The position numbers were made by a program, and so were the translations under genes. 64,000 bases of DNA from Candidatus Omnitrophota bacterium (GTDB taxonomy: Bacteria > Omnitrophota > Omnitrophia > Omnitrophales > JACQLI01), in assembly GCA_016179745.1 (NCBI GenBank), contig JACPCP010000017.1:2626-66625 (forward strand), in the 5' to 3' direction. A model generated the notes under the pieces. That model was given only the letters and a program-made list of their open reading frames with translations. It ran no database searches and had not been told where the DNA came from. Every line of letters starts with the position of its first letter. Positions within the stretch are counted from its first letter, which is position 1. Of the stretch, positions 3 to 30,800 are shown piece by piece.

Positions 3-1010
3 CGAAAGACAAAGATTATTACGTATATCACCAGTGACAGGCCTGGAATAAATTCCATGATCGAAGATTCAATGTTGCGGGAATTATATGATCATTTAAA
101 GCCCATCAAAGGACAAAATATCGATCTATTTCTGTACAGCAGGGGCGGAGCTTCTGTCGTTGCTTGGGGACTTGTTAATTTGATTCGAGAATACGCGAAA
201 AGGTTTTGCGTCATCATTCCCTATAAGGCGCATAGTTGCGCAACGGCTATGGCGATAGGTGCCGATAAAATTGTAATGGGAAGACTCGCTGAGTTAGGTC
301 CCGTGGATCCGACAATCGCAACAGTCAAAAAAGGAGAAAGACTGGACGTCTCCGTTGAGGATATGTCGGGGTACATTAATTTTTTGAAAAATAAATTTGA
401 AATTAAAGCGGAAGATCAAAGCATTAAAGCTTTTGAAAAATTGGCGGACGAAGCTTCCCCCCTAACTTTAGGAAGATCTTATCGAGAATATATTAAAGCT
501 CGGGAGGATACTAAAAAACTGTTGTCTTTCGCTTATGAAGATAAAGCCATTGACAAGATCGTTGAGATCTTGGTGGAAAAACTTTACTCGCATTTCCATT
601 TGATTAATCGTAAGGAAGCAAAAGAGGCGATAGGTTTAAATGTAGAATATGCAGACGATGACTTAGAAAGCTTGATGTGGGATCTTTATCTTTACTACGA
701 GCAGGAACTGCATTTCAAAACACCTTATGAAGATAGTCTTCCGACTTCGGGCACGTACATTGATGTTCCATTGGCAATTATTGAAAGTGAAGCTTTAAAA
801 AGCACAAGGTGTGCCCGTCAATGGTATTCGGCAACGCAGCTACCAGATAATTCCAAAATCGTTCAGGTAAACAGTCAGCTAGGGATATTGTTGCCAAGTT
901 CTAATGTTTTGCCAATAGCTCCCAAGCCAGGCGCAAGTTTTTCTGATATTGGCAGAAAAATTTATGAAAAGCGAGAAGTCGTTTTGTGGGAACAAACGAA
1001 AGATCAATAA
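3..1010 (+). CDS. SDH-family (ClpP/SppA-fold) serine protease, 5' end cut by window edge
   Basis: The frame is open from nt 3; [18 protein letters not shown] precedes the first ATG at 57. The core [24 protein letters not shown]...[30 protein letters not shown] fits the 'serine dehydrogenase proteinase' ClpP-like family pattern. Its TAA stop overlaps the hsdR ATG (TAATG at 1008-1012). Confidence 0.6.
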
Positions 1011-4000
1011 TGCCCCACGTCATCACCGAATCAGAAGTTGAGGAGCTTGCTCTAGATATTCTTTCCGAACAGGGCTATGAAGTTGTCCACGGCCCGGACA
1101 TCGCGCCGGACGGGCCTAGTCCTGAACGGCAGAGTTATTTGGAAGTCGTCTTGATCCGCCGATTGCGCGATGCAATTGACCGGCTCAACCTGAAGATCCC
1201 CACTGAAGCCAAAGAAGAAGCCCTCAAGCAAATCCTCCGCTTAGAAAGTCCTGATTTGGTCACCAACAATCACCGCTTCCACAAAATGCTCGTCAATGGC
1301 GTGGATGTGGAGTTTCGAGAAAGGGCAGAGATTGCTTCGCCCGGAAAGCGGGCTCGCAATGACGGCGCTTTTCGCAGTCCCGTTAGGGGCACGACCTACG
1401 ACAAAGTTTGGCTGTTTGATTTTGAGAGTCCGGAAAATAATGAATTTCTAGCGGTCAATCAATTCACTGTCATTGAAAATAATCACAATCGCAGGCCGGA
1501 TATTGTTCTTTTTGTAAATGGCTTGCCGTTGGCGGTGATTGAACTAAAGAATCCGGCAGATGAAGATGCGACGGTTTTAAGCGCATTTAAGCAGTTTCAA
1601 ACCTATAAAGCTGAAATTACCTCTCTCTTCAATTTCAACGAAATCCTTGTGGCAAGCGACGGTTTTGATGCCAAGGCCGGAACGATTACCTCGGAGTGGG
1701 AACGATTTCAGCCGTGGAAAACGATCGATGGCAAAGAGAGGGCACCCAGCGCCACTCCTCAAATCGAAGTGCTTCTAAAAGGGATGTTCAATAAAAAAAC
1801 CCTGCTTGATTTGGTTCAGCATTTCATTGTTTTCGAAGAAAAAAGCAAAATACTCGCCGCCTACCATCAGTATCATGCCGTCAATAAAGCGATTGACGCA
1901 ACGCTTGAAGCCGCGAGCACGAAGGGAGACAAACGATGCGGTGTGGTGTGGCACACCCAGGGTTCCGGCAAGAGTTTGAGCATGGTGTTTTATACCGGTA
2001 AATTAGTTTTGGCAGGAGAAATGGAAAATCCAACGGTTGTGGTTCTCACCGACAGAAACGATCTGGACGACCAGCTCTACGGCACTTTTTCGCGGTGCAA
2101 TGAACTTTTGAGACAGGCACCGGTGCAGGCGGAAACCAGAGCCCAACTGCGGGAATATCTCAATGTATCCTCCGGCGGGGTTATCTTTACGACCATACAA
2201 AAATTTTTGCCTGAGGAAAAAGGGGATACTTATCCTCTTTTGAACGACCGCAGAAATATCGTCGTGATTGCCGACGAAGCCCACCGGAGCCAGTACGATT
2301 TTATCGATGGTTTGGCTAAGCATATGCGCGACGCCTTACCAAACGCTTCTTTTATTGGGTTTACCGGAACGCCTGTCGAATTGAAGGACCGGAATACGCA
2401 GGCGGTTTTTGGAAACTACATCGACATTTACGATATTCAGCAGGCCGTGGATGACGGGGCCACGGTGAGAATTTATTACGAAAGCCGTCTCGCCCGGCTG
2501 GAACTCAAGCCCGAGGAACGGCCGAAAATCGATCCAGGCTTTGAAGAAGCTACCGAAGGCGAAGAAGTCAGAAAAAAAGAGAGGTTGAAATCAAAATGGG
2601 CCCGGCTTGAAGCCATTGTCGGGGCTGAAAAAAGGATCAAACAAATTGCCAAGGATATTGTGAATCACTTTGAAGAACGCCTGAAAGTTCTCGAAGGCAA
2701 GGCCATGATCGTCTGCATGAGCCGACGGATCGCTGTGGACCTTCACGAGAAAATCGTGAAATTGAAGCCGGAATGGTACCACAAGGACGATGATAAGGGA
2801 GTGGTTAAGGTCATTATGACCGGATCTGCCGATGACGGACCCGAATGGCAGGAACATATTCGCAATAAACTTCGCCGCCGCACGATTGGCGACCGCATGA
2901 AAGATCCAAATGATCCGCTTAAGCTTGTGATTGTGCGAGACATGTGGCTCACAGGGTTTGATGCGCCGTCGCTTCACACGATGTATCTCGACAAGCCGAT
3001 GCGTGGGCATGGTCTGATGCAAGCAATTGCGCGGGTGAACCGTGTGTTCAAAGACAAACCCGGCGGATTGATCGTAGATTATTTAGGAATTGCAGACGAT
3101 TTGAAAAAAGCCCTCGCCGAATACACCGAAAGCGGAGGCAAAGGGGCACCGGCTTTTGATCAGGAAGAAGCAGTTGCCTTAATGCTTGAGAAATATGAAG
3201 TTGTTTCTGGAATGTTCCACAAATTTGATTTCAAACCATTCTTTAAAGCCAACGTTACAGAAAAGATGACCATCATCACACAGGCGCAGGAACATATTCT
3301 GGAGCAGAAAAACGGTAAGGATCGCTACCTTGCTTATGTGACCCAGCTTTCCCAGGCATTCACACTTTCCGTTCCTCATTCCAAGGCGCTGAAGATTCGG
3401 GATGATGTTGGATTCTTTCAAGCAGTGAAGGCGCGTCTTGCCAAATATGAAACCGGCACGGGTAAGACGGATGATGATCTCGACTCCGCTATCAAACAAA
3501 TCATTTCCAAGGCGATTGCTTCAGACAAGGTGATTGATATTTTCGCAGCGGCGGGATTGAAGAAGCCCGATATTTCGATTCTCTCGGATGAATTTCTGGC
3601 CGAAGTCAAAGGCATGCCGCATAAAAATCTGGCTTTTGAATTGTTGAAAAAACTTCTGAATGATGAAATCAAGGCGCGGTCCAAGCGGAATTTGGTTCAA
3701 GGACGTTCATTTGCCGAGATGCTTGAAAGTGCGATTCGAAGATACCAAAACAAGGCCATTGAAGCGGCGAGAGTGATCGAAGAGTTGATTGAGCTTGCCA
3801 AGAAAATGCGTGAGGCAGAAAAGCGGGGCGAGGGTCTTGGCTTAAGCGAAGATGAAGTTGCTTTTTATGATGCGCTTGAGGTCAATGACAGCGCCGTTAA
3901 GGTGCTCGGCGATGAGACATTAAGAACCATTGCCCGCGAACTCGTGACTACGGTACGCAATAACTTAACGATTGACTGGACTCTTAAGGAAAGCGTGCAG

Positions 4001-4630
4001 GCAAAATTGCGCGTGATGGTCAAACGGATTTTGAGAAAATACGGCTACCCTCCGGACAAAGAAAAAAAAGCTACCGAAACCGTGCTTGAGCAAGCGACTT
4101 TACTCTGCAAGGATTGGACAGAAAGTTCTGTTATTCCTGACGAGGGCAAACCCTTATTTTTCAGTGATGTGATTCCGGATGGGAGCATCAAAGAAGGGTA
4201 TCTTCCCGTTTATGACCTTCGGGTTGCGGCGACGTCTTTTAAAGAACAACCCACGCCCGAACCCATCGTCTGGAAACCTGTAAAAAATCGGAAATTAAAT
4301 GGAGATATGTTTATCGCCCAAGTCGTGGGTAAGTCGATGGAGCCTAAGATTCCTGACGCGAGTTTCTGTCTCTTCCGGTTTGAGCGCGGTGGTTCTCGAA
4401 ACGGTCTTGTGGTCCTTGCGGAATCGCGGCTTGTTACCGATCCTGAAACCCATCAGAGCTTCACTGTGAAGCGCTATAAAAGCGAAAAAGAATACTTCCC
4501 CGACGGCCGGTGGCGGCACAAGAAGATTACTCTTTCGCCTGACAACAAGGATTTCAAAGACATTGTTCTCGAAAACGTGAACGAAGATGACTTTCGTGTC
4601 GTCGCCGAGTTTCTGGAAGTGCTGGCATAA
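1010..4630 (+). CDS. hsdR: Type I restriction enzyme R subunit (HsdR) with extra C-terminal S24/LexA-like peptidase domain
   Basis: The N-terminus [25 protein letters not shown] and [19 protein letters not shown] form a nuclease core. The DEAD/helicase motifs are [43 protein letters not shown] and QAIARVNR. I prefer the ATG at 1010 to the ORF-track start at 986. Confidence 0.9.
1331..1363 (+). repeat. In-frame mini hairpin element (ATTGCTTCGCCCG-GAAA-GCGGGCTCGCAATGAC) inside hsdR
   Basis: Nested inverted repeats attgc/gcaat and gcccg/cgggc. It encodes [11 protein letters not shown] directly after the codons R-A-E (1322-1330). Related copies lie at 16930-16956 and 29353-29391 in the giant ORF. 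Confidence 0.55.
4198..4627 (+). other. S24 (LexA/UmuD-type) peptidase-like domain fused to the HsdR C-terminus
   Basis: [14 protein letters not shown] resembles the LexA 'PLxGxVAAG' linker. VVGKSMEP at 4328-4345 matches the GDSMEP catalytic Ser motif. FTVKRYK carries the catalytic Lys, and the region ends in a beta-rich tail. It lies beyond the usual end of the HsdR core (...[14 protein letters not shown]). Confidence 0.65.
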
Positions 4631-13920: not shown

Positions 13921-15879
13921 ATGGGAATCCAAAAATACCGCTCAAAAACCGTCGCTTTTTTTGTCGCCCTTTCCTTCATCCTTTTAAATTGTGGTGCGAA
14001 TCTTCACGCCCAAACTCCGTCCGGAGAGGCTCTCGTCTCTCGATTCCCATTAGTCGATGAGGCCCCAATCAGCCTTCCGGCGGAGCTGGGTGTGATTCAG
14101 GAGACCTACCAGGGCCATTCCAATCAAACCGTGATTTACCTTCAGGATGCCCACACCCATCCTGAGGCGCAGCGGTCCATTCAAAAAATCATCGATTACT
14201 TCCAGAGGCGCCACGGACTTCAGCTCGTCACGGTTGAAGGGGGAGAGGGCAGGCTCGACCCTCTTCTTTTCCGGGCCTACCCCGGGCGGAAAAATCTGGA
14301 GTCGGTCTTCCGGGATTATCTCGACAAGGGAGAACTCTCCGGCGTGGCCGCAGCCGCCGTCCTCAATGAAAGGCCGGCTGAGTATTACGGGATCGAAGAC
14401 CGGAAACTCTACGAAGAAGGGATGCTGGCCTATCTTGCCGCCGACCGGAAAATCCCGGAAACGCTCGAGAAGCTTGACCGCCTCCAAGGCGATCTTGATC
14501 GAAAGAAAGAGCGCCTTTACTCTCCGGAACTTTTGAAGCTGGACCGTGCAATCAAAGAATTTGAAGCCGAAAAAGTACGATTAGCAGAGTTTCTGGCCTT
14601 CCTTGCAGGTTACGAAGGCGGCGTGCCTTCCGTCATTGCGAGCGAACGAAGTGAGCGAAGCAATCTTAAAGGTTATCCCCACCTCTTCGCCCTGATCAAA
14701 GAAATCGAGACGGAAGGATCGGATTCAAAGGCCGTGACGGCTGAGATCCGTTCGCTGACCCACGAGCTCAAGCCCCTCCTCAAAGATAAATCCGAACTCA
14801 TGTCTTTCAATGAGAACGAGCAGGCTTACCAGACCGGCCGGCTTTCGGCCCATGCCTTCGCCCATTTCCTCCTTGAAATGGCGGGGCAGCTTTATCGCCA
14901 CCTCGGTAGCGGAGGCTTAAGCCTCCGCTACCTTAAGGCAAATTACCCTGCCCTTCTCAAAGCCACCGAACATTTCCCCCTCCTCAAAAAGATGCAGGCC
15001 CCGGTTTTCTTCGAGGAGCTCGAATCGTATCTTGCCGAACTGAAATCCCGCCTCTTTCCCAGCGAAGCGGCGGAACGTTTGGACGCACTCGATCAGCGTC
15101 TTGCCCGGATGCGGAGTCTCGTCCGAATGGAGTTGACCCGGAAGGATTGGGAAGCGCTGAAGAGAGACATCGCTGTCAATCATCGTCTTTCAGCGGAGCC
15201 GTCCCTTGACGACTTTGTCGCTTTTTATCGAATCGCCGAAGCCCGTGAGAAAGTCTTTGTTGAAAAAATCCAGAAGCTTCTCGAAAAAGGGGACCGGGAA
15301 ATCCTCTTCCTTTCCGGGGGGTTTCATACGGAAGGAGTCACAGAGGCTTTTAGGAAACAAGGTCTGTCTTACGTTTTGATTACGCCCCGGATCACCAAAA
15401 GCCCCGAAGAAGGTCTTTATCAAAAAATGATGCGGGGAGAGGTCTCGTGGAAGAATTACTTCAAGGTCCGGAACGGCTGGGTCAATCTCTACGAGGCGTT
15501 TGCCGAGGCCACGGCGGATCGATTGGCCAGGCGGCCGGCCGAAGGGGAGCGAAGAAAAATCCTCCGGCTCTGGCGCGATGACGTGATCAGGAAATTATCC
15601 GGGGAGCGGAGGATCGAGCAATCCCGGGCCTACACCCGTTTCATCGAGAGAGCGGCGCTTGAAACCGTTTCGCCTGAGGAACTCACCCGGCTTCAATCCC
15701 TCTGGCGCGCCCGCCTCGACCGTTTCCTCACCGGTCTTAAAGACCTCGTCACCCAAAACCGCCTCACCGAGCAAAACCTCCTCCGCCTCTTCGCCAAGCC
15801 CGCTTCAATGCCCGCTGCGGTTCTTCCCCTCTTTCCGACTTCTCGACTTCCAATCGCCCTCGATCGGATCACCCATCCC
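13921..15879 (+). other. Block 0: secreted N-terminal module of unknown function (~650 aa)
   Basis: A signal peptide is followed by VIYLQDAHTHPEAQRSIQKII...LVTVEGGEG and LFLSGGFHTEGVTEAFRKQGLSYVLITPRI. The block ends at variant junction RSELR. I do not recognise a named family. Confidence 0.4.
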
Positions 15880-18800
15880 CGGTCCGAGCTAAGGAGTGAC
15901 GAAATAAAGGAGGGTAGGCCGAGAGGAGTGGACTGGCAAACTTTTATAGAGGGGGAGATCAAGCGAAGCCCTCCCTGGAAGGACGATCCCGCTTATCAGG
16001 GTACGTGGAAACAGGCCGCGCTGGGAGGAACACTGGGCGTTACGGACCTTTTGATGGATCAAATTGTGAAATTACTGGAAGGAAATGGAATGCTAACGAA
16101 AGAAAGACGTTTACTCCCCGGGCGTGTTGGCCTAGTTCTAGGATTTGGTAGATCCGCGAACGAATTATCAGAGGCTAAACACTGGTTCAACTTGGAGGTT
16201 GTCCACGGTGTAGAGTGGGTCGATGGACGGGTCGAAGATGCTGCAAAGGGTTTTGCAAACCTGGGCCTTTCTCCCCGTAATTTTAGGCTGCACCACGAGA
16301 GCATGGAAGAGCTCAAAGACACAATCGCCGATGAATCCGTCGATTTCGTATATGCAAGGGCTATTAGCTATGATTTTAAAGGAGCGTCCCGAAAGTTGGG
16401 ATTGGAGATCCTCCGGATTCTAAAGCCAGGCGGAATATTCTACACAGATGACAGTTCCCCTGAACTGAGAGAAGCCCTTCGAGAGCATGGTGAACTCTTG
16501 GGAGGACCAGACATCTCTGGAATGCCGGGATTCACAATATTTAAGAAGCCGGATCACGAACAATCCTCCCGCGCCGAGGTGCGTTCCGGCGTAGTTCACC
16601 TCGCCGCCGTCCGAAGGGGTAGCCGTCAGGGTGGGAGAGGAATCCTCCCAAATCGTCATGAAAATGAGAGCGAGAGATCTCTGCGTCAAAGGCGTCGGGA
16701 GCTGGAAGAAAGGATTTCAGTCCTGAAAGATAGAATCGTCCAGTGGGAGGAAGATCGCGGCCTGTTACTCAAAAGAATTTACGACTCGACTTCTCCCGAA
16801 CAAAGAGCCACGGTCTTAAACAATCACCAAGAGTGGGGCGATATCAATCAAATCCTGATCTGGAAGAGAAGGGATCTGAAAGCGCTTCAGAGAGAATTGG
16901 AGAACCCGTCAACATCCTCCCGCGCCGAGCCTGCTTCGCCCAGAGGGCTTCGCAGAGCTGAGGTGCGGGGCGAGGCCTCTACGAAGCTCGAGCGAAGTAG
17001 GGCCGAGGTGCGGAAAAGGAATATCAGTGGGTTTGGGGACGCTGCCGGTGGGAATCCAAGTAAAGAAGTGTTAGAACGAAGGCGATCAGAATCAAAGTGG
17101 CGACAACCGGAATCATCAGTTTACCCCTCCTTTCCGGGCGGCGTGAATAAGGATTCCAATCCCGATACACAAAATGCCCAGCGAGGAAAAGGTGAGACGA
17201 AGATAGGTCGGCAGCTTCTCAAAAAAAGAACTCGCGAACCCGACCGTAAGAATCGCCTTTCCCATATCAGCAAAGTTCTTGCCGACAAATTTCTTCGTGG
17301 ACTCATCAAAGGTAATCATACTTGGTTTCCTCTCAGATTCCCAGCCTCATCCTTCAGAAGTGGGAGTATAGGGAAAAATTCAAAAGAAGTCAATATAGAT
17401 TTTCATAAAAAACATAACCCATTTCCCACTCCTTTCCGCGCCGAGGTGCGGGGAGAGAAGACCGCAGAGGAAAGGATACGTAGGCTTTATTCGTGGTTTG
17501 ACCAAACTGAGAGTTACAAAGAGATGAAACGTGTGCTGAAACAACATCCCAAGGTAAAGATATTCGGGGGGGCAAACCAGGTTTCAGTCTACTCGTCAGA
17601 GAGCGCTCTTCCCATCATGACGTCGCCGAGTGAGACTCTTCGTCAATATCTGATGCAGGATCAAGGATTGGAGGGAGGGCTTTCCATTAAGGAAATGGAG
17701 CGCCTCAGCGGCGAAGTTTTGGGAGAAGAGATCGAGACCCTCCTTACGGTCTTTACGACCGTCTCTTTTAAGGAGGCCATGGAGTTCATCGAAAACTTTT
17801 CCGTCCGCCCACCGACTGAAGCAGAGATGAAATTCTTCGAGCACTTGAAGCGATATGTCGATGATTCGACCCAAGTGAGCCAGGAAATGGCCTATCAGGC
17901 AGCCATTTACCATCTTGCGGGACGCGACGGTTCCTACGCCCCGCTTCTTGATTATGTGAATCACCTCCTCGAAAACCGGGGGAAAAATCCGAGGATTCAC
18001 TCCTCTTCTCCTTCTCAAGCCGTTCAGTCTTTTGACGAAGTCAGGGAAATAAAAATCTGGGGGGTTAAGGAAGGTCTTGCCACCCACGTTTCCAGAATCC
18101 AGGTAAGGCTCCAAAACCGGCCGCCGGTCTATTTTGCGATGAATGTCGCCCAGGATTTACATGGGTCGGCCGACACTCTTCGGGATGCCCATCGTGTCTT
18201 GGAAGAGGACTACGAGTGGGATCCCCGTTACATCATGGAGCCCCTGGGGCTCGGCGCCGGCAAGGCGAAACGGTGGGGAGAAAGGGTGGTTTCGATTCCA
18301 ATCTCGGTGGGGGAATGGCTTGAGGAATTTGAGGAGCTTCATCTGGAGCCGGAGAGCGATACACGGTTTGAAATTTGGCGGGAACAAGGAAAACGGAAGG
18401 AAATCGTTGACCGGGAAGGGTCGAATCAGATCTGGAGCCAGATTGCCTATCTTCGAACGCTCTATTCCCGCAAGACCGCCGACGGGGTCATTTTGGCGAG
18501 GGGAGTCGTCTTGGCCGGAGATTATGTCGGGCGGAGAGGAAAGGACGGCCGGTGGGAAGTCATGCAGGTCTGGCCCCGAAGGAAGAAAAATGAGCGATAC
18601 CCCGATCCTGCAGCTATCATTCTAAACGGCCTTCTTTTGCAAGAACTCGATTTCCTCAAGCCCAACCCGGACGTGCCCGCTTTGATCTTTTGGTCCCGTT
18701 TTGATCTTGCACTAGGGTCTGTCTTGGCCGCATTAGAGGATCAAGCGGCCGGACCCAAAAGGAATTCTTTGGAACCCATTGCCCGAGAAACTTTGAATCT

Positions 18801-21800
18801 TCTAAAAGGAGCTCAACAGGCGTTACACGACATGGGGGCCGATCCCCAAAACAAGATTCCCGGGTTCATAAATTATCCAGAAGAGCGAAAAGGGGCCCTT
18901 CAACTTTGGCTTGAGCTGGCAGAAGAAACTTTGAAGAGGTTTACAGAGACTATCGAAAAAGGAAACCGGGGAGAAGCTCTCGAGAGCAGGCAAACGCCAA
19001 CCCTCGAGTGGTTTGAGGCGGTCGGGCATCCTTTTTCAGTGGATCTCAGATTTGGAGCCGGGAGATTGACTCTGAGTCAGCGGGAATCGGTTGAACGTGA
19101 ACTCGGTATGCAAATGGTCGATTCGGTTCCGAGCATGGCTCAAAAACATGGGTTGGACGTCCCCTCTTTGAAATTAGATTGGGCGATTCGTCTGGGTCTC
19201 GAGAGCTTATTTCATCCGAGAAGTCCGCAACAGGGAAAATGGACCTATGAAAATTTAACGGCCTCCCTTTCAAAAAGGCTGGGGAGACCTGTTTCTGTTG
19301 ATGAGATTCAGGAGATCGATTTTTGGGCCCCGAAAGCGGGGGGCGTTATGTTGGTGAACCGTGCCGTAGTGAAACTCAAGGGTGAAGATACGCCGGAGTT
19401 TCTGGTTGTGGATGTCCCGAAGGACCTAGGGCCTTCGAGCGAGCGGGTCAAACGGGAGTATGAAATTCTGAAGCGATGGCATGAGCGTCTTCCCGATCGG
19501 GTCATGGAACCTTACAAGTTGATAACCCTGAGGCTTCGAAATAGCCGCTTTCCTCAAAAGACTTTTCCGCTGCACATCATGATCGGCCGGTGGTTTGAAG
19601 GGTATCTCGAGACCCACATTGTTCCAGACGGGGGTAGTTTTCGGGTGCAAGTGATTCGAGAATGGGGTGACCGGGAAGGCCGTGGCCTTAACGCAGTCGT
19701 GCTCGATTCTGAGCCATCGGACGAATTTTGGGCTGAGATCGCACGTATGAGGACGGTTTTAAGTGATTTCGAAAACGGGACCGTCACCTCGGGTCTCTTT
19801 GCGATTAACGATGGGGCATTCATTGCGGGCTTGGATGGTTCCAATCAGTTGATTCGTGACAATCGAGGACGCCCCGACATAAAGATTATTTCTGTGTCTG
19901 AGCTCCTCCCCTATCCGGAAGAGGTCTTTCCGCTCCTTTTGACCACCGATCAAGCGATGTATCACCGTGACGCCACCCGTCCGGAGGCGGGACGTTTGGT
20001 TCTTTGGAACCGTCCCGAAAAATCCTTTGAGGCCTTTATCCAAGGATACATTGACCAAGTCGGTGAGGGCCTCTCGGGGAAGGATCGGGATGAAGCTGTC
20101 AGGAAACGGCGGGAAGAGGCGCTCCGAATTCTCGAGAAAACCCGTCAACTAAAGCCATTGCAAGAAGGAGGGATACAGATGCGCAATGGAACCCGAGTTT
20201 TCTTTGCCCATCCGCAGATAGCAGGCGGCGAGGTCTTTCAGCCTCTTTTAGAACGGGCCCTGGCGATCCTGCCAAGTTTTATCGAGGCTCAGAGACGGAT
20301 CCTTAAGTCTGGGATGAGGTCCGGCGAAATTGACATTCGAGCGGGAGACATTTTTCGACATTCCAAGAGTCAGAAGATTTTCATTGTCACCGAAGTCGTT
20401 CAAGGCCCTTTGACCGCTAAAATTCAGGACGGAGAGACTGAAGAGACCCGCACTTTAGACCGCAATTCGATCGTCCAGTTTCTTGCCGAGCACACGATTA
20501 CAAGCAAAGCCCGCCGCGCCGAGGTGCGGAACGTGGAGGCAGCGAATAGTCTGACGACTACAAGAAGGGAAAAGAGGGCCCGGCCGGAACGAAATCGCAC
20601 GGGGTTCGGTTCCATTGTCGGCAAACTGAGCTTTAAAGAAGAGGAGTATCGGGACCAACTCATCTCCCGGCTTCATGCCCAAGGACTGAGCGGCCAAGAG
20701 GTCCGTGATTTGGCGAATGCGCTTGTTCGATTCAAAGAAGACTCGCTGGGACAGCGGGCTTCTTTGTTTGCGGAAGGAGAGGGAATAAAAAACATCCTCC
20801 CCTCCGGAGAGTTTGATTTATCGACCTTTGTCGAGCGTCTCAGGAAAGAAAGACAGGCTCATTCGGAAGAATTGAATCCGAATGGGAAGCCCTTGTTCAC
20901 TGACAGAGAAATTCATGAGCTTCTTTTCAAAAGCTTGATTCCCGTTTCCTGGGTTCACGCATTGCGGCGAGAAGGATTGTCAAAGCATAACCTTCTTCGG
21001 GCGTTTGCAAGCTGGGCCGACCCCCTTGGGACTTGGCAGAAGAAAAAGACGCTCCGGGATGATTTGAAGAAGTCTGGTTTTTCCGACAGCGAGGCTACGA
21101 TTGCCGTGATGAACTGGGAACATCCTCAGACGACTTGGAAAAGACTCAGGATAATCCGGGATCAACTGGCGAGCCATCCTCAAAATAAACTGACGCCCAA
21201 AGAGGCCACCATGATCGTAATCACCTGGGGCGACAGAGCGCTTGAGATTTGGAACAAGCGAAGGCGGATCCGGGATCAGTTTATGAGACTTGGACTTGGG
21301 AAGAGCAACTCAAATATCTTAGCCCTCAGGTCGCATCCGGCGGAAATGCTGCGGGCCGTGAACAAGACAGCAGGAAATCTTACACGGGCAGGAATCCGAA
21401 AATTTAAAGAGAACTTTCGTTTTCTCCTCCAGCGCAGCCATGGGGTGGTTCGCCGCTGGCTGAAAGACAGCTCGGACTGGCCCAATCGAAAAATCAACAA
21501 GCTCTTGCGGCCGCTCGGCGACTATCAAAACCGGTATGGCCGTTCTCAACGAAGCAGGGCCGAGGTGCGGACCGCAGAAGGGGGGATGGAGGGGAAGATG
21601 GGGCCTCAACGTTTCCCTCGCCACCTTCGCCCTCCCTTATGGGTTCCGCCAGTGATCTCAGATTTTGTCACCGGGACGGACGGTATGAGGGGAAGCCGGC
21701 CCGTGTCTCCCGCAAGATGGCTGATGGAGATGAAATTGATGTCCGAATTTTCCACTTTGAGACAGAAACTTTTCAACGGGATCGTTGAGCGGCTCGGGCT

Positions 21801-24800
21801 GGATGAGAGCGAATGGACGGAACTGATTCGGGTCATTAACCTGGAATTCGACGAACTTCTTCAAGGGATGGCTGAAGATCATCGATCGCTCCGTAATGCG
21901 GGCTGGGAAGCGGGGATGTCGAGGCGGGACATTTCGGTTTCGGTCCGCAACCTGGATGAGATTAAAGGACTTGTTTTTCTCGGGCTCCACCGGCAAGCGC
22001 AATCGCTGATTGAAAAATATGGCAGCGAGTCTCTGGATGGGGCGGTGGATACTTTGCGTGATGAAATAGCCGGGAAGGCCCCGATCGTCAACTTCATTCT
22101 TAGTTTTTGGGAGCCGGCGTCATTGATCAGGCTAAAAATAAAAAGCCCTGAGCAGTTTAAGCTCCATTTACGACAGATTTCGGAGGTTCTCGATTGGGAA
22201 TTTCAACAGATCAAGGCAAGGGAAGAAAAGTGGATCCAATCAAATTACCTGGTGCGGCTTGAGGGAGGAACGGCCCTCTTCAAGTTTCTGAATCAATTTA
22301 TGAACAGACTGAACCGTCTGGGTCATTCCGACGAGGGCATCGATCGTGCCCTGGAAGGGTTTGAAGACAATCTCTTCCCCCGTTCCGAGGCGAGAAGCAC
22401 ATCTGAAGAAACGGATTCCGATTCTGCCTATTTTGAAAAGCTCACGGGACGTTGGGATCCTTTCTGGAGAAAGTCGTCAGGACGGGAGAACGAAGGGGCC
22501 TTCGCCGGCTCGTATCCCCCGCAGGTCCAAGAGTGGGTGCTTGGGCGGATCGCTCCGTGGGCGGCGCATCACGGAGCGGGGTCGTTTGTGGATTTGGGGT
22601 CGGGAATCGACCTTCATTTGCTTCGTATCATTCAGAAGCAGTTTCCGGCGTATTCTCTCCATGCCCTGGATGTCGTTGAGCCTTCTCTCATTCCGCCCGG
22701 TTTTCAAAACGGGATCCCTTATTGGCGGTCTTTGATGGAGAGGACCCCCTTTGAAACCGGCATGTTTGACGGGGTCCTGTCCACGTTTGCCGCTGAATAC
22801 GGCCGGCTTGAGGAAATTTCCCGGGAGATTCTTCGCATTCTGAAGCCTGCCGGCCTGGGACTTTTGGTGATCCACCATCCCGGTTCCGGAATTGTTGTTG
22901 AAAGGGAAAGAGACGACCAGCGCATCCGTCAAGCGATCCCCCTTCTTCAAGGGGCTTTGTCCCTTCTTCAAAGAGTTGACTTTAATCTTCTGGAGGGCCT
23001 GGAGACGGAAGCAAAAAGAAATGCCGTCCTCTTCCACCGATTGCAGGGGCTCTTTGAAAGCCTGCGTGAAATACAAAGATCGCCTCAGCCGGAGGCAATC
23101 GAGGGACTCAAAAAATCGCTGCAGGAAAGTCTTGAAGCGGGCCCCTTGACACTCTGGGGTCACGAACAGCTTCTGGAGAATATCAGTCGTTTCAAAGTGC
23201 CCCGTGATGTCGAAGAGTTCTTTTCAAGATTTGGATTTTTAGCGCAGGCGACGCTTCTCCGCTGGCCCCGGACTCCTTTCCCCGGCCTTGCTTATGGAGT
23301 TGTTTTAATTCCGGCGGCGGCCGCTCATGCCTTCCGTGCCGAGGCCTCCCGCTCCGAGGCGAGAACGGTTGTTGACGATCTAGATTCGGGAAAGATCGTG
23401 CAAATTGGCAATCGCCTCCCTTCTTATGTTTTCAAAGCCGGACCCAAACGCCTGGTCATGCTTTCTATGGAAAGATTGAATCATATTCGAAAGGAGCACC
23501 AGCCGGCCCCACCAGGAAAGGACGGATTCGAGAAAAATGCCGACATTCCTGACCTCATCAAGAAAGCTTTTCAAAAAGCAGCTGAATCAGCCGTTTCCGC
23601 CAATCGTTTCACCGTCGACTTGGAAGAGCCAATTGGAACCCAGACAGATCGTGAAGGGGCCTCCTATCCGTCCACCAAGATGACCGTTGCGCAGGTTGTT
23701 CTGAAGCGGTCCGGATCGTCAGGGCGGGGTGACCGTAGGAACCCGCGGGATTGGAAGGCTGCCCAAGAGGTCTTTGAGGCATTCGGGTCTGAAATGCCCA
23801 GAGATCAAAAAATACATTTTGTCTTGACTGCTTTTCCGGGCGAGGAGAGAAAACGCCGCGGGTCCCATTCTATGCAAGAAAGGTCAGCCCGTTTGTTACG
23901 ACGGCAGATCTTATCCAGCAAATCTTCTTCCCCCCGCTCCGAAGTGCGGAGTCAAAGCACATCTAAAGAAGAGTCTTTGATCGCTGAGGATTCTGCGGTC
24001 GCAAGGCTGTTTGCAGGAATCGGGTTCGATCTGAGGGTGCCACGTTCTGCGATGCCACGGGGACGAGAGGGAAAAGATGTTTTTCGGGTCCATTGGGTGA
24101 TGTTGCCGGATGAAGCGAGAGCGAGACTTCATCAAATAAGTCGTCTGACTAGTCGTCCCAAGGGAGGCAAAGCCGAGCTTTACCTATTTCAACCCCTACC
24201 GGGTTATAGTCCCATTCTGAGTCGGCTAAAGGGCAGCAAAGATACACCGCTTTTCATTCTCTTCAAAGGGGAGCAGCCCCTCTTTCTGGTTGTGAGTCAT
24301 TTATCATGGGATCAGCTCGACTACACCCATCAGAAGGATTACCTCCGGACGGCGAACGTAGGTGCAAATGTTGCAAGAAAAGAGGTGTTTGCATTGGCTT
24401 ATCTGGTGGAAGCAGCTGAGAAGACAGAAATGACTGAAAGTAAACTTCGCGTCATCCAAGAGGCCGGTAAGTTTTTAAGCCACTGGTTGGGGACAAGGGC
24501 AAATCACTCGTTGAGTGTCATGACGAGAGGCGATCTTTTTAACCGGTTCTCTACAGAATTTGGACCGCAAAATCGTGTTTACATTTTCCCGGGCGCCTTC
24601 GATTACACCTCGATCTCAAGCCAAATCTTCCTCTCGGGCATCCGACCCGAACCGGGTGATTCGGTTCTGGATCTAGGAACCGGGACCCTTATCGGCGCCG
24701 TCAAAGCGGCTGAAGTCCAACTTCAGGCAGGACAGGAAAATCCCGATTCGGTCGGTGAGATTTGGGCGGTCGATCAGGACCCCTTGGCAGTTCAAAACGC

Positions 24801-27800
24801 CCTGTTCAACAGGGGTCGGTTGCCCCAAGAGGTGGCAAGCAAGATCGAGGTTCGGCAGAGCGATCTCTTTCAGAATATCCCGCCGGATAAACGTTTCAAC
24901 CGAATTTATTTCAACCTTCCGGTCGAAACAGAAGGTGCAAAGAATCCAGCTGATTCGAGACTTGCGGTTGACCCCAAAGTGTCTGATCCCGGATCAAAGT
25001 TGCTGGAGAGGTTGCTTAAAGAATCGAAACCATTCCTAAAACCGGGAGGAACCCTCGAAGTGAGCCAGGGTGACTTGCCACATTTCTGGCGACGGGTGTA
25101 TGAAAACGGATGGTTGCCTACGGTGGTTGAAGGATACCAGGTTTCTCGGGGCATGCATCAGCGAGCGCAGATGGAAAAGGGGTTGCCGGATTCCATCCGG
25201 GTCACTCTCGTTCCATCATCAGCAACCGAACCAACCCCTATCACAGACCAGTGGAGAGCAATAGAGAAGCTTCACGATAAGCTCTTGTCTCAGCCCGGGC
25301 TGTCAGATGAAGAAATGGCAGCTCTCCAGGAGATGGAACAGCATTTGCGGGGAGAGGTAGCGGATGTTAATAGTTTCCTCCTGCACAAAGCAGTGAGGTC
25401 GTTTCAGGAGTGGGGCCGTGGCAACTTCGAGTTTGAATACCCAATCGGTTTCACGAAGTTGGAGCGGCGCGCCGAGGTGCGGGAGGAAGGCGGTGTAGAG
25501 TTAAAAGTTAAAAGTGAAAAGGAAAAAGAAGAAAGAAAAAAGGTGCAAGGGGAAAGAGGAGAGGTGGCGGAGGCTGATATAGAAGGATTAAGAGGAGCCG
25601 ATCCCTTCAAGTTTGACGGTCTTAAGAGTCGACTGGTCGGCAAAGCGCCTACGGGCGTCGAGAATTTCGATTCCGGCGATCCGTCCGGCAGAATCAAAGT
25701 CTACGGCGACTCCTTCAGCAACGTGTTTCGTGATAACAGTCGTTTCTTGGAACCGGATGTAGAGCGCATCCACCTTTGGATCGTAAGTAATCCTCACCGC
25801 TTGATCTCCTTCGCTTCAGAAATAATACACGTAAACCGTGACTACGACAATCTCGGACTCTTCCTCGGCAAATATGGGCCGGACTTGTTTGGTCTTGTAA
25901 TGCTTCCCGTTCCACTCTTTTTCGTAGGGATAATCCTTCTTACACTCCAGCCTCCCGAGCTCGGCCGGCTTCCAATCAGCACTTCGGATCGCCTCAAATA
26001 CCTCGGATTCGCCCGTGCCCCGAAAGGCAAGCTGCCGTCGGGCGTGGTCGCTGATAAAAATGGGTTTCCTAGGATGGGCGGGCATGGAGGGGAAGTTAAT
26101 CCAACATTGCTTCAAAGTCAATCTGAATTTAACTTATATAGAACTCCCCGCCGCGCCGAGGTGAGGGGAGAGGGGAAAGACTCACTTGCCGACCTGAGGA
26201 ACTTTGCAAGGATCGTATATATCGCGGAGGAGAAAAAGGAGCCAGACAAGCGGGGTTTGACCCTGTTTATGCGAAGCCGGAAAAATTACCCCTTTCCCGA
26301 TAGTCGGGATTTGGCCGTGGCGGCGGGCCTTTCGCGCACAAGCAGTTCTCGGATCCGGAATGTGGCCAAGGTGCATTATGGAGGGATGGCCAATCTTCAG
26401 GAGAAACTCGGTTATCCAATCAAGGTCAAGGAAGGGGCGCGCTCACTCAAGAGAAGGAAAAACGTGGTGAGGAAGATCTTTGAAGCGGTTCGGAAAAGGG
26501 AGCCTCAAGATGAGGAGGAACTTCGTCGATTTGAGCAGGCCGCCAAAGGGAAAAAAAGACCCCCCGCCGTTTTTCAGATGGGAGAAGACGTCTACCGAGC
26601 TATTCGGATCCATCACGGAGGCGCAGACAAATTTTTCCAAAGCCTCGGTTATGGGCCGAAGAAATCACTTGGCAGTTGGCAAAACTTTCTTGAAGCCCTT
26701 TTTAAAGATTTGCATGGGAGGAATCCGTCTCCGAAAGAACTCAGGGAGTTTCGGAAGAAAAAAAGTCGAAATCGTGTTCTGAAGAAAGCAGATCTTTCAT
26801 CCAGGGTTTTTAATGCCGCCCAGAAATACTACGGTGGAATTACCGGGGTGGCGGGCCGTCTTGGTTTCAAGCTATCGAAATCGTACGAGGGCCGCTCTCT
26901 TGAGGATTGGGGAAATTACGCAAGGGCACTGTATCGGTTCCTTTATGGAAGGAACCCGAGTGAGCGCGCATGGAAGCGGTTCATAGACCCCGCGGTGAAG
27001 AAAAAAGGGAGGCTCCCTCGCTACGAGGATATCCCCTCGGCTCTCAGGAAGGCATTGAGGCATCATGGAGGAATTGGAAAGGCGGCGGCAAGCCTTGGGT
27101 TTAACGATCAGGGCCCAAACCGAACCCGCATGCGTTATTGGCCCAATCTCTTTGAACGGCTTGAACGCCTCTGGCGGGAAGAAGGATATGCCGGGCTCTG
27201 GGAAATGGTGGAAAAAAGTCGGACTACCCGCCGTCTTCGCAAGGCCATTGAGAGTGATTACCCCGGTGGGTTGGCGGGGGTGAAGAGACGGTTCCTTTAC
27301 GAGATGGGGGATCGGGCGGTTCTAATTGCTGAGGAGCTCCTTGGCGAACGGGCGTTTGAAGAGCTTGAATTTTTGAAAGGAGCCTACGATGAACTTGTGA
27401 AAAAAGAGAGGCCCCTTCCTCTTTCCGAGGCGGCGAGAACCCAAGTCGACCAAATGATCTTACGGGCATTCGAAGAAAAAATGGAAATTGACGACCTCCT
27501 TGAACGTTACCGCCTTTCATTTAATGGGAGAAGAAACTACCCCACGCCTGGGGAGGTGGACCAGATGGTCCAAGATGCAGTCCTCAACGGAAATTTCTCA
27601 AATCACCTCAACGCGGCGGCGGACCAGAAAGGAGGCTTGCAGCGGCTGACAGCTCACCAAAGATTGGCTCGTGTATTGGAGTTGGCGAGGGAATCGGAAG
27701 CGACAAGGGCCGCCCTCAAGCATGCCTTCGAGGGCTTGGAACCCGCCGGACGAGAGGGTCTTTTGCGCCGGTTCGTTAAAAGAACTTCGATCGGCGATTT

Positions 27801-30800
27801 GATTCTCGGGATCGCCGGAATCAGTTTGCCTCCCGACGATTTGGAGAGCAGAGTCTCGCAACTTCCCGCTCGTCGCATTATTTTTGTTGATCCACGGCAA
27901 GCATTGAGGCTTGCCGATAAGGCCCAAATTCGTTCGGAGGCCCGGCAGAAACGCACAGAGCGTTACCTCGAAGCGTTTCAAGGAGGCCGGACCTCTTGGA
28001 GTCAGTTTCCATCCCCAGAGAGGGTCCGACTAATTCGAGTTGCCGCGGATGAACTGGGCAAGCCGCCAGGAGAAATGAATACCAGGGATTTTGCCCGAAG
28101 GATTCAGTCCCTCGCTTCACCAAAGTATCCTTACGGCAAGATGTTGGCAGGGCTCTTAGGGCATTATCGCAAGCCCGGCGAGCCCGTGAGTGTGGCGCTG
28201 AAGAGACTTAAGAAGAGATTGCTGGGCATCAACGACTCCCTCCCGCAAAAGAGGGTCTCTTTTAGAATAGGTCTCGGAGCGCTGATGAGGAATGAAAGCT
28301 TATCGCTTCAAAGAATTCCCAAAAAAGCTCAACGTCGCGCCGTTGAATTAATCGCTGGAAAAATGGGTAAAACCCCCGGTCAATTGCGGACCCGTGACGT
28401 TAGGAAGAGCAGCACATTGAGGCGTCTTGTGAATCATTATTGGAAGAAGGAAGAGGGGGAGCTGGCAGCGCTTAAAAGAATGAAAAAGACTTTGGGAATC
28501 TCTCACGAGCCTACCGGAAACGACATTTTCTATGTTTGGAAGGAAAAGTATTCGGACTGGGACCAGGTGAAGGAAATTTTAGGCCTGAATGGGCCACTTC
28601 CACTCAATGAGGAGCAACTCATTAAAATTTCCGAGGAAGAAAGGAAATCCCGAGGAACGGGGGAGAAATGGGGATTTAAAGCATTCCAAGAGGCACTGTT
28701 CACCGAGGTCCGGCGAGGGAATGCGGCGGCGCGAAGCGCTTCCCTCATCTTGCATCAGGGTCTAATCTGGATGGTGGCGAAAAAGGTCTGGCGAATCTCA
28801 AAGAATTTTGGCCTTCCAAAGGGGATCGCATTTGAGGATTTGATCTCGGTTGGAAAGATTGTCCTGGCGAGGGCCGTGGAAAAGTTCAGCGAGAAAAAAA
28901 GGCCCTACCTCTTCTCCTCCTATGCCTATGGCTACCTTAATGCCGCGATGGTCCGGCTCGTAAAAAGGGAGAGAAAGAGGGAGGAAAAATTTCGGGAGAT
29001 CCTGCATGAGCCTTTGAACGGTACAGATGGAGCGACAAGAGCGAGCTTCATTGATGAGGAGAGGAGGATGATTTGGAGAGGAAGGAAAAACGCCAGCCTC
29101 GAACCGTCTGATCTCGTCGACCTCAGACCGGCTGTCGTGACAGCCCTTAAAGACGCAGGCTTCTCAGAGCGAGATATTCGTATCTTCTTCGCTAGGATTG
29201 CTGGCCAGAGGAGGGACGAGATCGGGCTCGAGCACCATATCAGCGGGGTGCGGGTTGGGCAGATTCATCAGAAGGCATTAGGTGTGGTGCAAAGAGCCTT
29301 GGCTGATGGCGTCAATGATGGCGCAAGTTACCGTAACCGCGCCGAGGTGCGGTCTGCTTCGCCCGCCGTGCTGGATGGCGGGCTTCGCAGAACCTGGAAC
29401 ATGGTGTGGGAGGGGCCAGGGGAAGCAAAAGGGCAGGAGAACAGGCAGGTTACTGGTGATGCTTCAGGAAGTAGCGTTCGAGAAGAATCCACACGATCAT
29501 CGCCAGAATCAGGAAAGTTGCCCATACCATGGCAAACATCTTACGCCTCCTCTTTGATTCGGACGTCAGCAAGAGCAATTCCGGCAATGAGAAGCATCGG
29601 TGTTACCATACTGAGCGTTATTCTAAGCCCAATTCCCGTGATTTTGTCAAAAATTCCACCGATTGCCATAGCGATGACGAAAGTTTGGAACAGTGTCAGG
29701 CAGGTCTTAGAGAGAGCCTCGAACCTCTTTTCGGTCCAAAAGGAACGTTTCATGATTGCCGGAAATATATCAATAATTTCCATAATTGTCAATGATGAAC
29801 TTATCCCCTTCAGAGAGCTGGTTCCGCTCTTCCACCGCGCCGAGGTGCGGGAGCCTTCCCAAGCCGGTGTGCCGGTGCAGCAGAGAAAGGATCTGGACCG
29901 CCTTTTTGAGATCCTTGATCGGAATTACTTTCAAGAGGGCGCCTTTCAGGAGAGAATCTCGAAAACCTTGAGAGACCTACCTCGAATTGAAAGCCAGTTT
30001 CCCGATGAATCGGGTCATCCCGATAGCCCCAATTGGAGTGAGAGCATCGCCTTTCACGAAAAGGAAACTGCCCCCGAAATTCTTGAAGCTTTAAAAAGCC
30101 GCCGATTAAACGGCGAGGATCTCACCGGCTTATGGTCCCAGATGGTCGTGGGTTTTCAGATCGATTACTTCAGGCAGGTTCATTCGTGGTTCAAAGTACC
30201 CTTGGAATCTCAAGGTGAGAGAAAAGCCGAGTTGATCGCCGAAATGGGATATTTCCGAACTTTGACCGCATTACTCCTTGCCCTTCAGACGGATCTGGCC
30301 AATGGTCGAGGTGTAGATTTGGCCAAAGAGATTTTGTTGAAACTCCATCAGAAGATCGTCGAAGCCGACCAACGAGGCACCAACCTCTTTACTCGAGCGG
30401 CTCAGACTCTTCCTGAGATGGAGTTGATTGTCACCAGCCTTTATGCCCATTCCCCGACATCGGCCGAACAGCTTCTTTTAATCGGCCTGGCTGAAGAGAA
30501 ATGGCCGGAGCCCCTGCGGAGTGAAATGTTGGCGCTTAAGTTGATACACAAGGTGAATCACCTTGAAATGATTTCGACGATTTCGGACAAACCTCCTATC
30601 AAACTGTATGAAGAGCTTGAGGACCTCCTTATGCTTTCGGACAATGGGATTGATTTCAGAGAATTAAAGGCCAAATTCGAGCCTGTCCTCACGAACTCGG
30701 GAAAGGGAGACCGTCTCGCCCAACAAGCGGTAGGGATGGTCTTACTCTTTTCCCCCGTTCTTTTCCTTGTCCCAAAAAAAAATAGGCCCACGTTTTTCAA

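Follow-up and report, generated by a model that had tools for sequence, protein, structure and literature searches.

An in-frame hairpin in an Omnitrophota hsdR gene belongs to a REP-like palindrome family found across bacterial phyla and phages

Repetitive extragenic palindromes (REPs) and REPINs that are mobilised by REP-associated tyrosine transposases (RAYT, TnpA-REP) carry a GT[AG]G tag and have a cognate Y1 (HUH) tyrosine transposase gene flanked by the repeats. MITEs (miniature inverted-repeat transposable elements) are bounded by terminal inverted repeats, are accompanied by a target-site duplication and derive from an insertion sequence, while the Rickettsia palindromic elements (RPEs), reportedly described by Ogata and colleagues in 2000, are said to be inserted in frame into protein-coding genes. 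Here we compare with these systems a hairpin that lies in frame within hsdR, the gene for the R subunit of a type I restriction enzyme, on a 64-kb stretch of DNA (hereafter the window; 54.8% G+C) from a Candidatus Omnitrophota bacterium (contig JACPCP010000017.1, positions 2,626 to 66,625). The hairpin is a member of a palindrome family with a conserved structure, it constitutes an insertion polymorphism among HsdR homologues, and it occupies a loop of the protein. We consider it very probable (roughly 0.85) that it is a REP-like copy situated in frame at a tolerant β-hairpin tip, where it is carried as a passenger and has been inherited through insertion followed by recombination between alleles.

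The CGTC-tagged REP superfamily comprises the families CGTC-1 to CGTC-4 (Di Nocera, De Gregorio and Rocco 2013, BMC Genomics 14:522, PMC3733652) and includes the Neisseria dRS3 and the Rickettsia RPE-4 and RPE-6 repeats (PMC3733652). These REPs display a foot tag, CGTC (often TGTC or CCTC), and A and T at stem positions one and two, with the four families featuring stems of 8-9 bp, loops of 4-5 nt and a tail that is mostly CCA (PMC3733652). They are present in high copy number and are mostly extragenic, lying downstream of genes between unidirectional or convergent open reading frames (ORFs), often as inverted dimers; in-frame intragenic copies are nevertheless on record, and the repeats "apparently lack a dedicated transposase" (PMC3733652). 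Canonical REPs have been described as species-specific and REP/RAYT pairs as lineage-specific (PMC6006769).

A preliminary description of the window, made from its letters alone, had pointed to a nested hairpin in the reading frame of hsdR, and sequence, frame and fold all bear this out. Positions 1322-1363 read AGG GCA GAG ATT GCT TCG CCC GGA AAG CGG GCT CGC AAT GAC in the hsdR frame (R105-D118), and the segment folds as ATTGC / TTC / GCCCG-GAAAG-CGGGC / TC / GCAAT with -11.9 kcal/mol as DNA. This stability is ordinary for the composition (z = -1.6; equalled by 13 of 200 shuffles), and we therefore do not use it as evidence. On the minus, purine-rich strand the element is CGTC-ATTGC-GAG-CCCG-CTTTC-CGGG-CGAA-GCAAT-CTC, its coding strand providing residues E107-118. 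The window HsdR is 100% identical to the NCBI entry 'HsdR family type I site-specific deoxyribonuclease [Candidatus Omnitrophica bacterium]' and displays the Pfam domains HSDR_N, ResIII, SWI2_SNF2, T1R_D3-like, T1RH-like_C and Peptidase_S24.

The family to which this element belongs has, on the purine-rich strand, the consensus YGTC-ATTGC-GAG-[variable GC-rich stem-loop]-CGAA-GCAAT-CTC. The tag, 4 nt long, is unpaired; the outer stem has 5 bp and A-T at its start, and a conserved internal loop (TTC opposite TC) is asymmetric. The inner stem is maintained by compensatory changes, the inner stem-loop varies in length, the tail is short, and the whole element spans 25-52 nt. Scanning one genome per species for AGATTGCTTCG-N(2-30)-CTCGCAATGAC, we recovered at least 120 species-representative genome loci from more than 10 phyla; the matches listed include Chloroflexota, Patescibacteria, Bacteroidota, Planctomycetota, Omnitrophota, Desulfobacterota, Bacillota, Atribacterota, Zixibacteria, Ignavibacteriota and others, together with Alpha- and Gammaproteobacteria. 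The same pattern occurs in at least 120 viral contigs, and about 24 of those listed form a group with a common portal protein and major head protein. When up to two substitutions per end were allowed, the genome loci held 234 copies, shuffled sequence held 0 and the window exactly 2. Of the 234 genome copies, 207 are tagged TGTC or CGTC, as are 267 of 284 viral ones; CTC forms the tail in 136/234 and CCA in 4/234.

The fold is retained throughout the family: across 70 copies, 84% of cells are paired, and covariation scores 0.212, compared with 0.085 for shuffles (reached by 0/500), with all slid registers scoring far lower. The pairs 7-46, 8-45 and 9-44 are A-U, U-A and U-A in 64-67 of the 70 copies, and an outer-stem U-A pair has been exchanged for C-G in six of them. 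A covariance model (R1) built from these 70 copies, none of which comes from the window, recovers the hsdR copy over 1325-1367 with 47.3 bits and an expect value (E) of 1e-11. It also recovers a second canonical copy, which the preliminary description had missed and which lies in the opposite orientation within a giant ORF (Table 1), and it finds nothing else of significance in the window. This is the only other place in the window where the ends GAGATTGCTTCG and CTCGCAATGAC are found; it reads CGTC-ATTGC-GAG-CGAACGAAGTGAG-CGAA-GCAAT-CTT and is translated in frame as VIASERSERSNL (residues 238-249).

Table 1. Positions in the 64-kb window of the palindromic elements, their host genes and the associated segments
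Feature	Position	Strand	Basis or remark
hsdR, encoding the 1206-aa R subunit of a type I restriction enzyme; carries the insert	1010-4630	+	ORF list
Replaced loop patch, 27 codons, E104-Y130	1319-1399	+	Codons of filled versus empty alleles
Canonical palindromic element in hsdR	1328-1364	-	Both conserved termini matched exactly; covariance model; fold
Additional 27 nt (GGCGCTTTTCGCAGTCCCGTTAGGGGC, encoding GAFRSPVRG), directly 3' of the element	1364-1390	+	Only in the window allele
Giant ORF, 5890 aa; host of one canonical copy and two class-2 hairpins	13921-31593	+	ORF list
Second canonical copy, opposite orientation to the hsdR copy	14631-14667	+	Termini match; model R1 44.9 bits, E = 6e-11
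Class-2 hairpin CTGC-TTCG-CCC-AGA-GGG-CTTC-GCAG, in frame (ASPRGLR)	16931-16955	+	Between an RAE triplet and RAEVR
Class-2 hairpin CTGC-TTCG-CCCGCCG-TGCTGGA-TGGCGGG-CTTC-GCAG, in frame (SASPAVLDGGLRR)	29354-29390	+	Directly after RAEVR

Close neighbours within the family are mostly arranged as inverted doublets (66 of 94 pairs), and tandem arrays are found too. About 84% of the exact copies lie outside long ORFs. Across the family, the flanking genes are unidirectional in 87 cases, convergent in 30 and divergent in 5. Certain contigs hold 5-7 copies in 6-12 kb, against 2 in 64 kb in the window. On one phage-like contig (L132:3300-12760) most short gaps separating co-directional genes contain the element, oriented as the genes are, and on a viral contig (L168:8200-10650) inverted pairs surround a partly conserved spacer of ~80 nt in three successive gaps, giving a unit of ~130 nt. 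As to the earlier proposal that a short palindromic element can lie in frame in unrelated genes, copies in several well-supported genes of other genomes speak for it: GMP synthase (EIASEGAPRND), ATP-dependent DNA ligase (VIARNSKNDEAIL), a PfkB kinase (SLRGAKRRSNL), a PD-(D/E)XK nuclease (EIASPPAVARND), a transglycosylase and a TrwB/NUDIX protein.

We aligned the N-termini of 120 HsdR homologues, three of which lack this region, leaving 117 for comparison. The turn between two conserved strands comprises 6-7 residues in about 112 of these and 26 in the window HsdR, which confirms the statement in the preliminary description that HsdR homologues have no such segment and identifies it as an insertion polymorphism in a loop. 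Two further metagenomic alleles carry an insert at the same site, namely P0004 (80% identity), with KSEIASPSARNDTKY, and P0039 (88%), with KSEIASSAARNDTKH; in the closest relatives, P0002 (90%) and P0003 (83%), the turn is short. Comparing three filled with three empty alleles codon by codon, we delimited the patch that was exchanged: the empty alleles have 7 codons there (CGT GGC GAT CGA GTC GTT GCC, or AAA GAC GGC CGA ATC GCA GGA), and the filled ones share GAA AAA TCA GAG ATT GCT TCG ... GCT CGC AAT GAC ACT AAA YAY, which substitutes for the 21 nt of the empty ones. In a tree computed from the remainder of HsdR the filled alleles are polyphyletic, P0001 and P0039 clustering with the empty P0002 and P0003, and P0004 falling among the empty P0008, P0010 and P0021. 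The simplest account of this distribution is a single insertion followed by recombination between alleles.

The window allele has diverged from the other two filled ones (L001 and L003) in that its inner stem is extended on both arms, from CC...GG to CCCG...CGGG, a change that retains the structure and alters the peptide. It also has 27 nt that are missing from those two alleles; within this segment CCC-GTTA-GGG forms a small hairpin, and no repeat family matching it emerged when all the loci collected were searched with 11-mers. Its GCTTTTCGCAG stretch resembles the right arm of the class-2 hairpins discussed below.

An AlphaFold2 model of HsdR residues 1-303 (mean predicted local distance difference test score, pLDDT, 71.6) has strands at 98-103 and 128-133 that flank the patch, and residues 106-126 have pLDDT < 50; the flanking strands and the low confidence together place the insert, as modelled, at the disordered tip of a β-hairpin in the N-terminal nuclease domain. 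The same turn has received an unrelated perfect nested palindrome in P0041 and P0047 (L368:501-4232; L367:501-4202), CCCTCACCCC-ATCCCTCTCCC-ATT-GGGAGAGGGA-GTCA-GGGTGAGGG, which encodes SPHPSPIGRGSQGEG. Other homologues show rare insertions after residues ~30-37, 240-243, 304, 402 and 737-740, the first two of these sites coinciding with residues 30-41 and 237-247, the other segments that the model predicts with low confidence. Such a distribution agrees with purifying selection sparing insertions only where the fold tolerates them.

Some further features of HsdR and its homologues were observed. A Peptidase_S24 (LexA/UmuD-like) domain is fused to the HsdR C-terminus (window 4100-4630) and is likewise present in most close homologues; homologues of ~1020 residues are shorter and lack it. 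The homologue P0062 (1355 residues) has an insertion of ~140 residues after the position of window residue 304 with DUF559-type endonuclease domains (PF04480, PF18741), bracketed by the palindrome-like peptides PQPSSPALLPGREG... and ...PSPCGRGKGEG, which suggests that a small endonuclease gene was inserted in frame along with repeats. On the contig of P0004 (L001, 14417-15838 and 3287-9994) DUF1016/YhcG nuclease genes are interspersed within the type I restriction-modification locus, and the filled hsdR locus adjoins a large serine recombinase, a setting consistent with a mobile, recombining defence island.

From these observations we posit the following history. A copy of the element would have entered the β-hairpin tip of the HsdR N-terminal nuclease domain, displacing a turn of 7 codons; as it has no stop in the frame used and its length preserves the frame, the gene would have remained intact and the protein acquired a disordered surface loop. 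After this single insertion, allelic recombination would have placed the patch in two other metagenomic hsdR alleles, and the window allele would then have lengthened its inner stem on both arms and gained its 27 nt. The family would have spread as single-stranded DNA hairpins by means of a trans-acting enzyme that is not encoded nearby, and the in-frame copies are presumably survivors of purifying selection.

Several observations weigh against this account. The filled hsdR alleles present a loop replacement with no target duplication rather than a clean insertion, and the mechanism of insertion therefore cannot be read from the junctions. No linked mobilising gene emerged from all-against-all clustering of the ORFs within a few kb of the element at 120 genome and 120 viral loci, where the only recurrent neighbours are ABC ATPases, response regulators, common housekeeping genes and phage structural genes; with no gene family recurring beside the copies, the mode of spread is something that we infer. 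The 64-kb window likewise holds no candidate mobilising enzyme, and the copy number of the element in this genome is known from these 64 kb only. The REP model offers no explanation for ~22 near-invariant nt across phyla, given the stated species-specificity of REPs (PMC6006769). Finally, a 5-bp outer stem, an internal loop and a variable inner stem-loop differ from the 8-9 bp stems and 4-5 nt loops of the four CGTC families, as does a tail of CTC rather than CCA.

The alternative that survives best, though improbable, is that the hairpin is functional in place, either as a pause, processing or stability signal in the hsdR mRNA or as a positively charged protein loop under selection. REPs are often transcribed and can influence the fate of mRNA (PMC3733652), the insert persists in three alleles that are 10-20% apart in protein sequence, and the window allele has kept, and even lengthened, its stem through complementary changes on both arms. 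Selection for such a role is difficult to reconcile with the roughly 112 of 117 homologues that do without the insert, with the decayed stem of the L003 allele (outer arm GAAAT, inner part TCTGCGG) and with encoded peptides that differ among the filled alleles (e.g., PSARND and SAARND, the window version being longer). Moreover, the family shows no strand preference relative to genes of the kind that would be an RNA-level signature (same/opposite 36/51 in genomes and 56/61 in viral contigs), and the same loop accommodates an unrelated palindrome in the P0041 and P0047 alleles.

The giant ORF bears on a second alternative. The canonical copy within it is an insertion of ~14 residues relative to most homologues of the N-terminal domain, two of which (P0136 and P0138) have in-frame palindrome copies of their own. 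Residues 1-660 are homologous to Omnitrophota proteins bearing R[AS]E[VL]R motifs, and the homology ends near residue 660, before the regions of the class-2 hairpins. The giant ORF itself has 12 R[AS]EVR motifs (16570, 16954, 16999, 17437, 20515, 21556, 23935, 25468, 26152, 29338, 29836 and 31294). A search with its first 1300 residues (13921-17820) returned no identical protein; since HsdR from the same contig was found at 100%, the giant ORF may be unannotated or split in the public record. Past the shared domain, its homologues display PEP-utilising, acyltransferase, methyltransferase, radical SAM, metallophosphatase, malate synthase and UDP-glucose dehydrogenase domains. R[AS]E[VL]R has the look of a conserved peptide signal, perhaps a cleavage site, lying between modules of giant polyprotein-like products.

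The preliminary description had seen one architecture in the hsdR hairpin and the two class-2 hairpins, attached to the RAEVR motif of the giant ORF, and had attributed the punctuation of that ORF to a mobile or recombinational origin at the DNA level. The corresponding alternative, in which a single such element carrying R-A-E(-V-R) accounts for all three hairpins, we regard as very unlikely. It has real observations behind it: the window has exactly three matches to the pattern TGCTTCGCCC-N(3-20)-GGGCT(N0-1)CGCA, all at sites of the preliminary description, with none expected from 100 shuffles; R-A-E codons precede or abut all three hairpins; and both class-2 hairpins abut RAEVR, with P ~0.0015 under random placement. 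The resemblance thus stands insofar as a core is shared beyond chance, but this core is generic (a stem of TGC and GCA, TTCG facing C(T)TC, and an inner stem of CCC and GGG) and the elements are different ones. Against E = 1e-11 for the hsdR copy, model R1 gives noise-level scores for the class-2 hairpins, 10.8 bits (E = 0.66) for 29354-29390, by a local match to model positions 8-35 only, and 7.2 bits (E = 8) for 16931-16955, and both lack the conserved AGAT and ATGAC ends of the family.

Nor do the R-A-E codons belong to a shared unit: the GAG (E) of the hsdR 'RAE' is part of the element's own conserved end, and the two relatives with the same hsdR insert have K-S-E at this position. The proposed tie between palindrome and junction motif fares no better. 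The CTGCTTCGCCC-N-GGGCTTCGCAG hairpin is abundant in metagenomes (at least 123 copies) and is embedded in several unrelated repeat contexts, and 0/123 of these metagenomic copies have R[AS]E[VL]R within 75 nt. Conversely, distant Omnitrophota homologues (23-38% identity) contain R[AS]E[VL]R by the dozen, and the 12-14 residues on either side show no hairpin-type peptide; 11 of the 12 R[AS]EVR motifs of the giant ORF have no adjoining hairpin. In 11 copies of RAEVR the first arginine is encoded by CGC (7), AGG (2), AGA (1) or CGG (1), the alanine by GCC, GCT or GCG, and the last arginine by CGG, AGG or CGT. This synonymous variation indicates that RAEVR is constrained as a peptide, and, with the conservation of that peptide in homologues, it leaves the supposed DNA-level mobile origin of the punctuation without support. 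The association of the two class-2 hairpins with RAEVR in the giant ORF is real but local; we prefer to explain it by sites that would be flexible inter-domain linkers, tolerant of insertions.

Hardly credible, finally, is a local origin in which the hsdR palindrome is no family copy and arose, say, through a template switch that wrote the complement of an ATTGC already in the loop: an ancestral loop ...R-I-A-G... can read AGG ATT GCN, many empty alleles encode D-G-R-I-A-G with a possible GGATTGC microhomology to the element's left end, and the junctions are those of a replacement rather than a clean insertion, but the unpaired positions (TTCG, CTC and the GAC-G tag) match the pan-bacterial consensus too, which completion of a hairpin would not yield, and the one empty allele with that loop that was read at the DNA level has CGA ATC GCA, not ATTGC.

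Seen as a REP-like passenger, the oddity in hsdR is a tolerated repeat and does not point to any special process shaping the giant gene. It is of a known kind, in-frame intragenic palindromes having been documented already, while the sequence family itself is not among the described CGTC families. Rfam gave no match at its gathering threshold in the window, and eight copy-rich loci searched with E up to 1 gave only chance-level microRNA matches elsewhere. The element sequence was not found in the searchable literature, where full-text matches to its 8-11-mers are chance primer matches only, and it is not shown in the RepRanger paper or in the HUH-superfamily paper. What is surprising is a hairpin that remains constant across many phyla and phages, when REPs are described as lineage-specific and the CGTC class has no known transposase; a family so conserved offers a good handle for finding what recognises or spreads such hairpins. 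Tentatively, YGTC-ATTGC...GCAAT-CTC could be a single undescribed family of bacteria and phages, whose ~22 nt would be held across more than 10 phyla by a broadly distributed machinery for recognition or mobilisation, other than RAYT, with phages as carriers, and which would routinely seed protein surface loops, including those of unusually large Omnitrophota proteins; we view this as possible rather than probable. For annotation, the repeats matter as a source of spurious small ORFs and of extra peptide loops of the forms EIAS..ARND, VIAS..RSNL and SLRG..RSNL. Tandem arrays of the element in a Chloroflexus sp. (L008:1372-1507; array period ~50 nt) and in Candidatus Caldatribacterium (L066:555-2200) give rise to long spurious ORFs on the opposite strand, and a viral contig (L148:2695-2819) has four copies in tandem with a 33-nt period.

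Set beside the known systems, the family resembles the GT[AG]G-tagged REPs and REPINs in its short hairpins, in its unpaired tetranucleotide at the foot, in its inverted doublets and arrays and in presumably acting as single-stranded DNA hairpins. It departs from the RAYT-mobilised ones in its YGTC tag, and no RAYT gene was seen within a few kb around each of the 240 loci. With MITEs it shares the properties of being non-autonomous, multi-copy and at times in frame within genes, but it is far smaller, its hsdR junctions have no target-site duplication and no parent insertion sequence was seen. The likeness to RPEs, drawn here from their description, lies in a palindrome that is in frame in unrelated genes and tolerated as surplus surface peptide; RPE-1, at 100-150 bp, belongs to one genus, whereas this element measures 25-50 bp and extends across phyla. 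Closest are the CGTC REPs: both window copies have CGTC (at 14631-14634 and, as reverse complement, at 1361-1364) and A-T at the start of the stem (ATTGC/GCAAT), and the family lies mostly between unidirectional or convergent genes, forms inverted doublets, has in-frame gene copies and, like those REPs, has no known dedicated transposase, the window's own two copies being single and intragenic. A 3-nt tail is present at the other end, but its usual form is CTC and seldom CCA. It differs from the CGTC families in its own sequence (ATTGC-GAG...CGAA-GCAAT), its near-invariant ends and its presence in many more phyla and in phage contigs. By its sequence features, then, the element family fits the CGTC/TGTC-tagged REP superfamily and yet belongs to none of the four families described within it.

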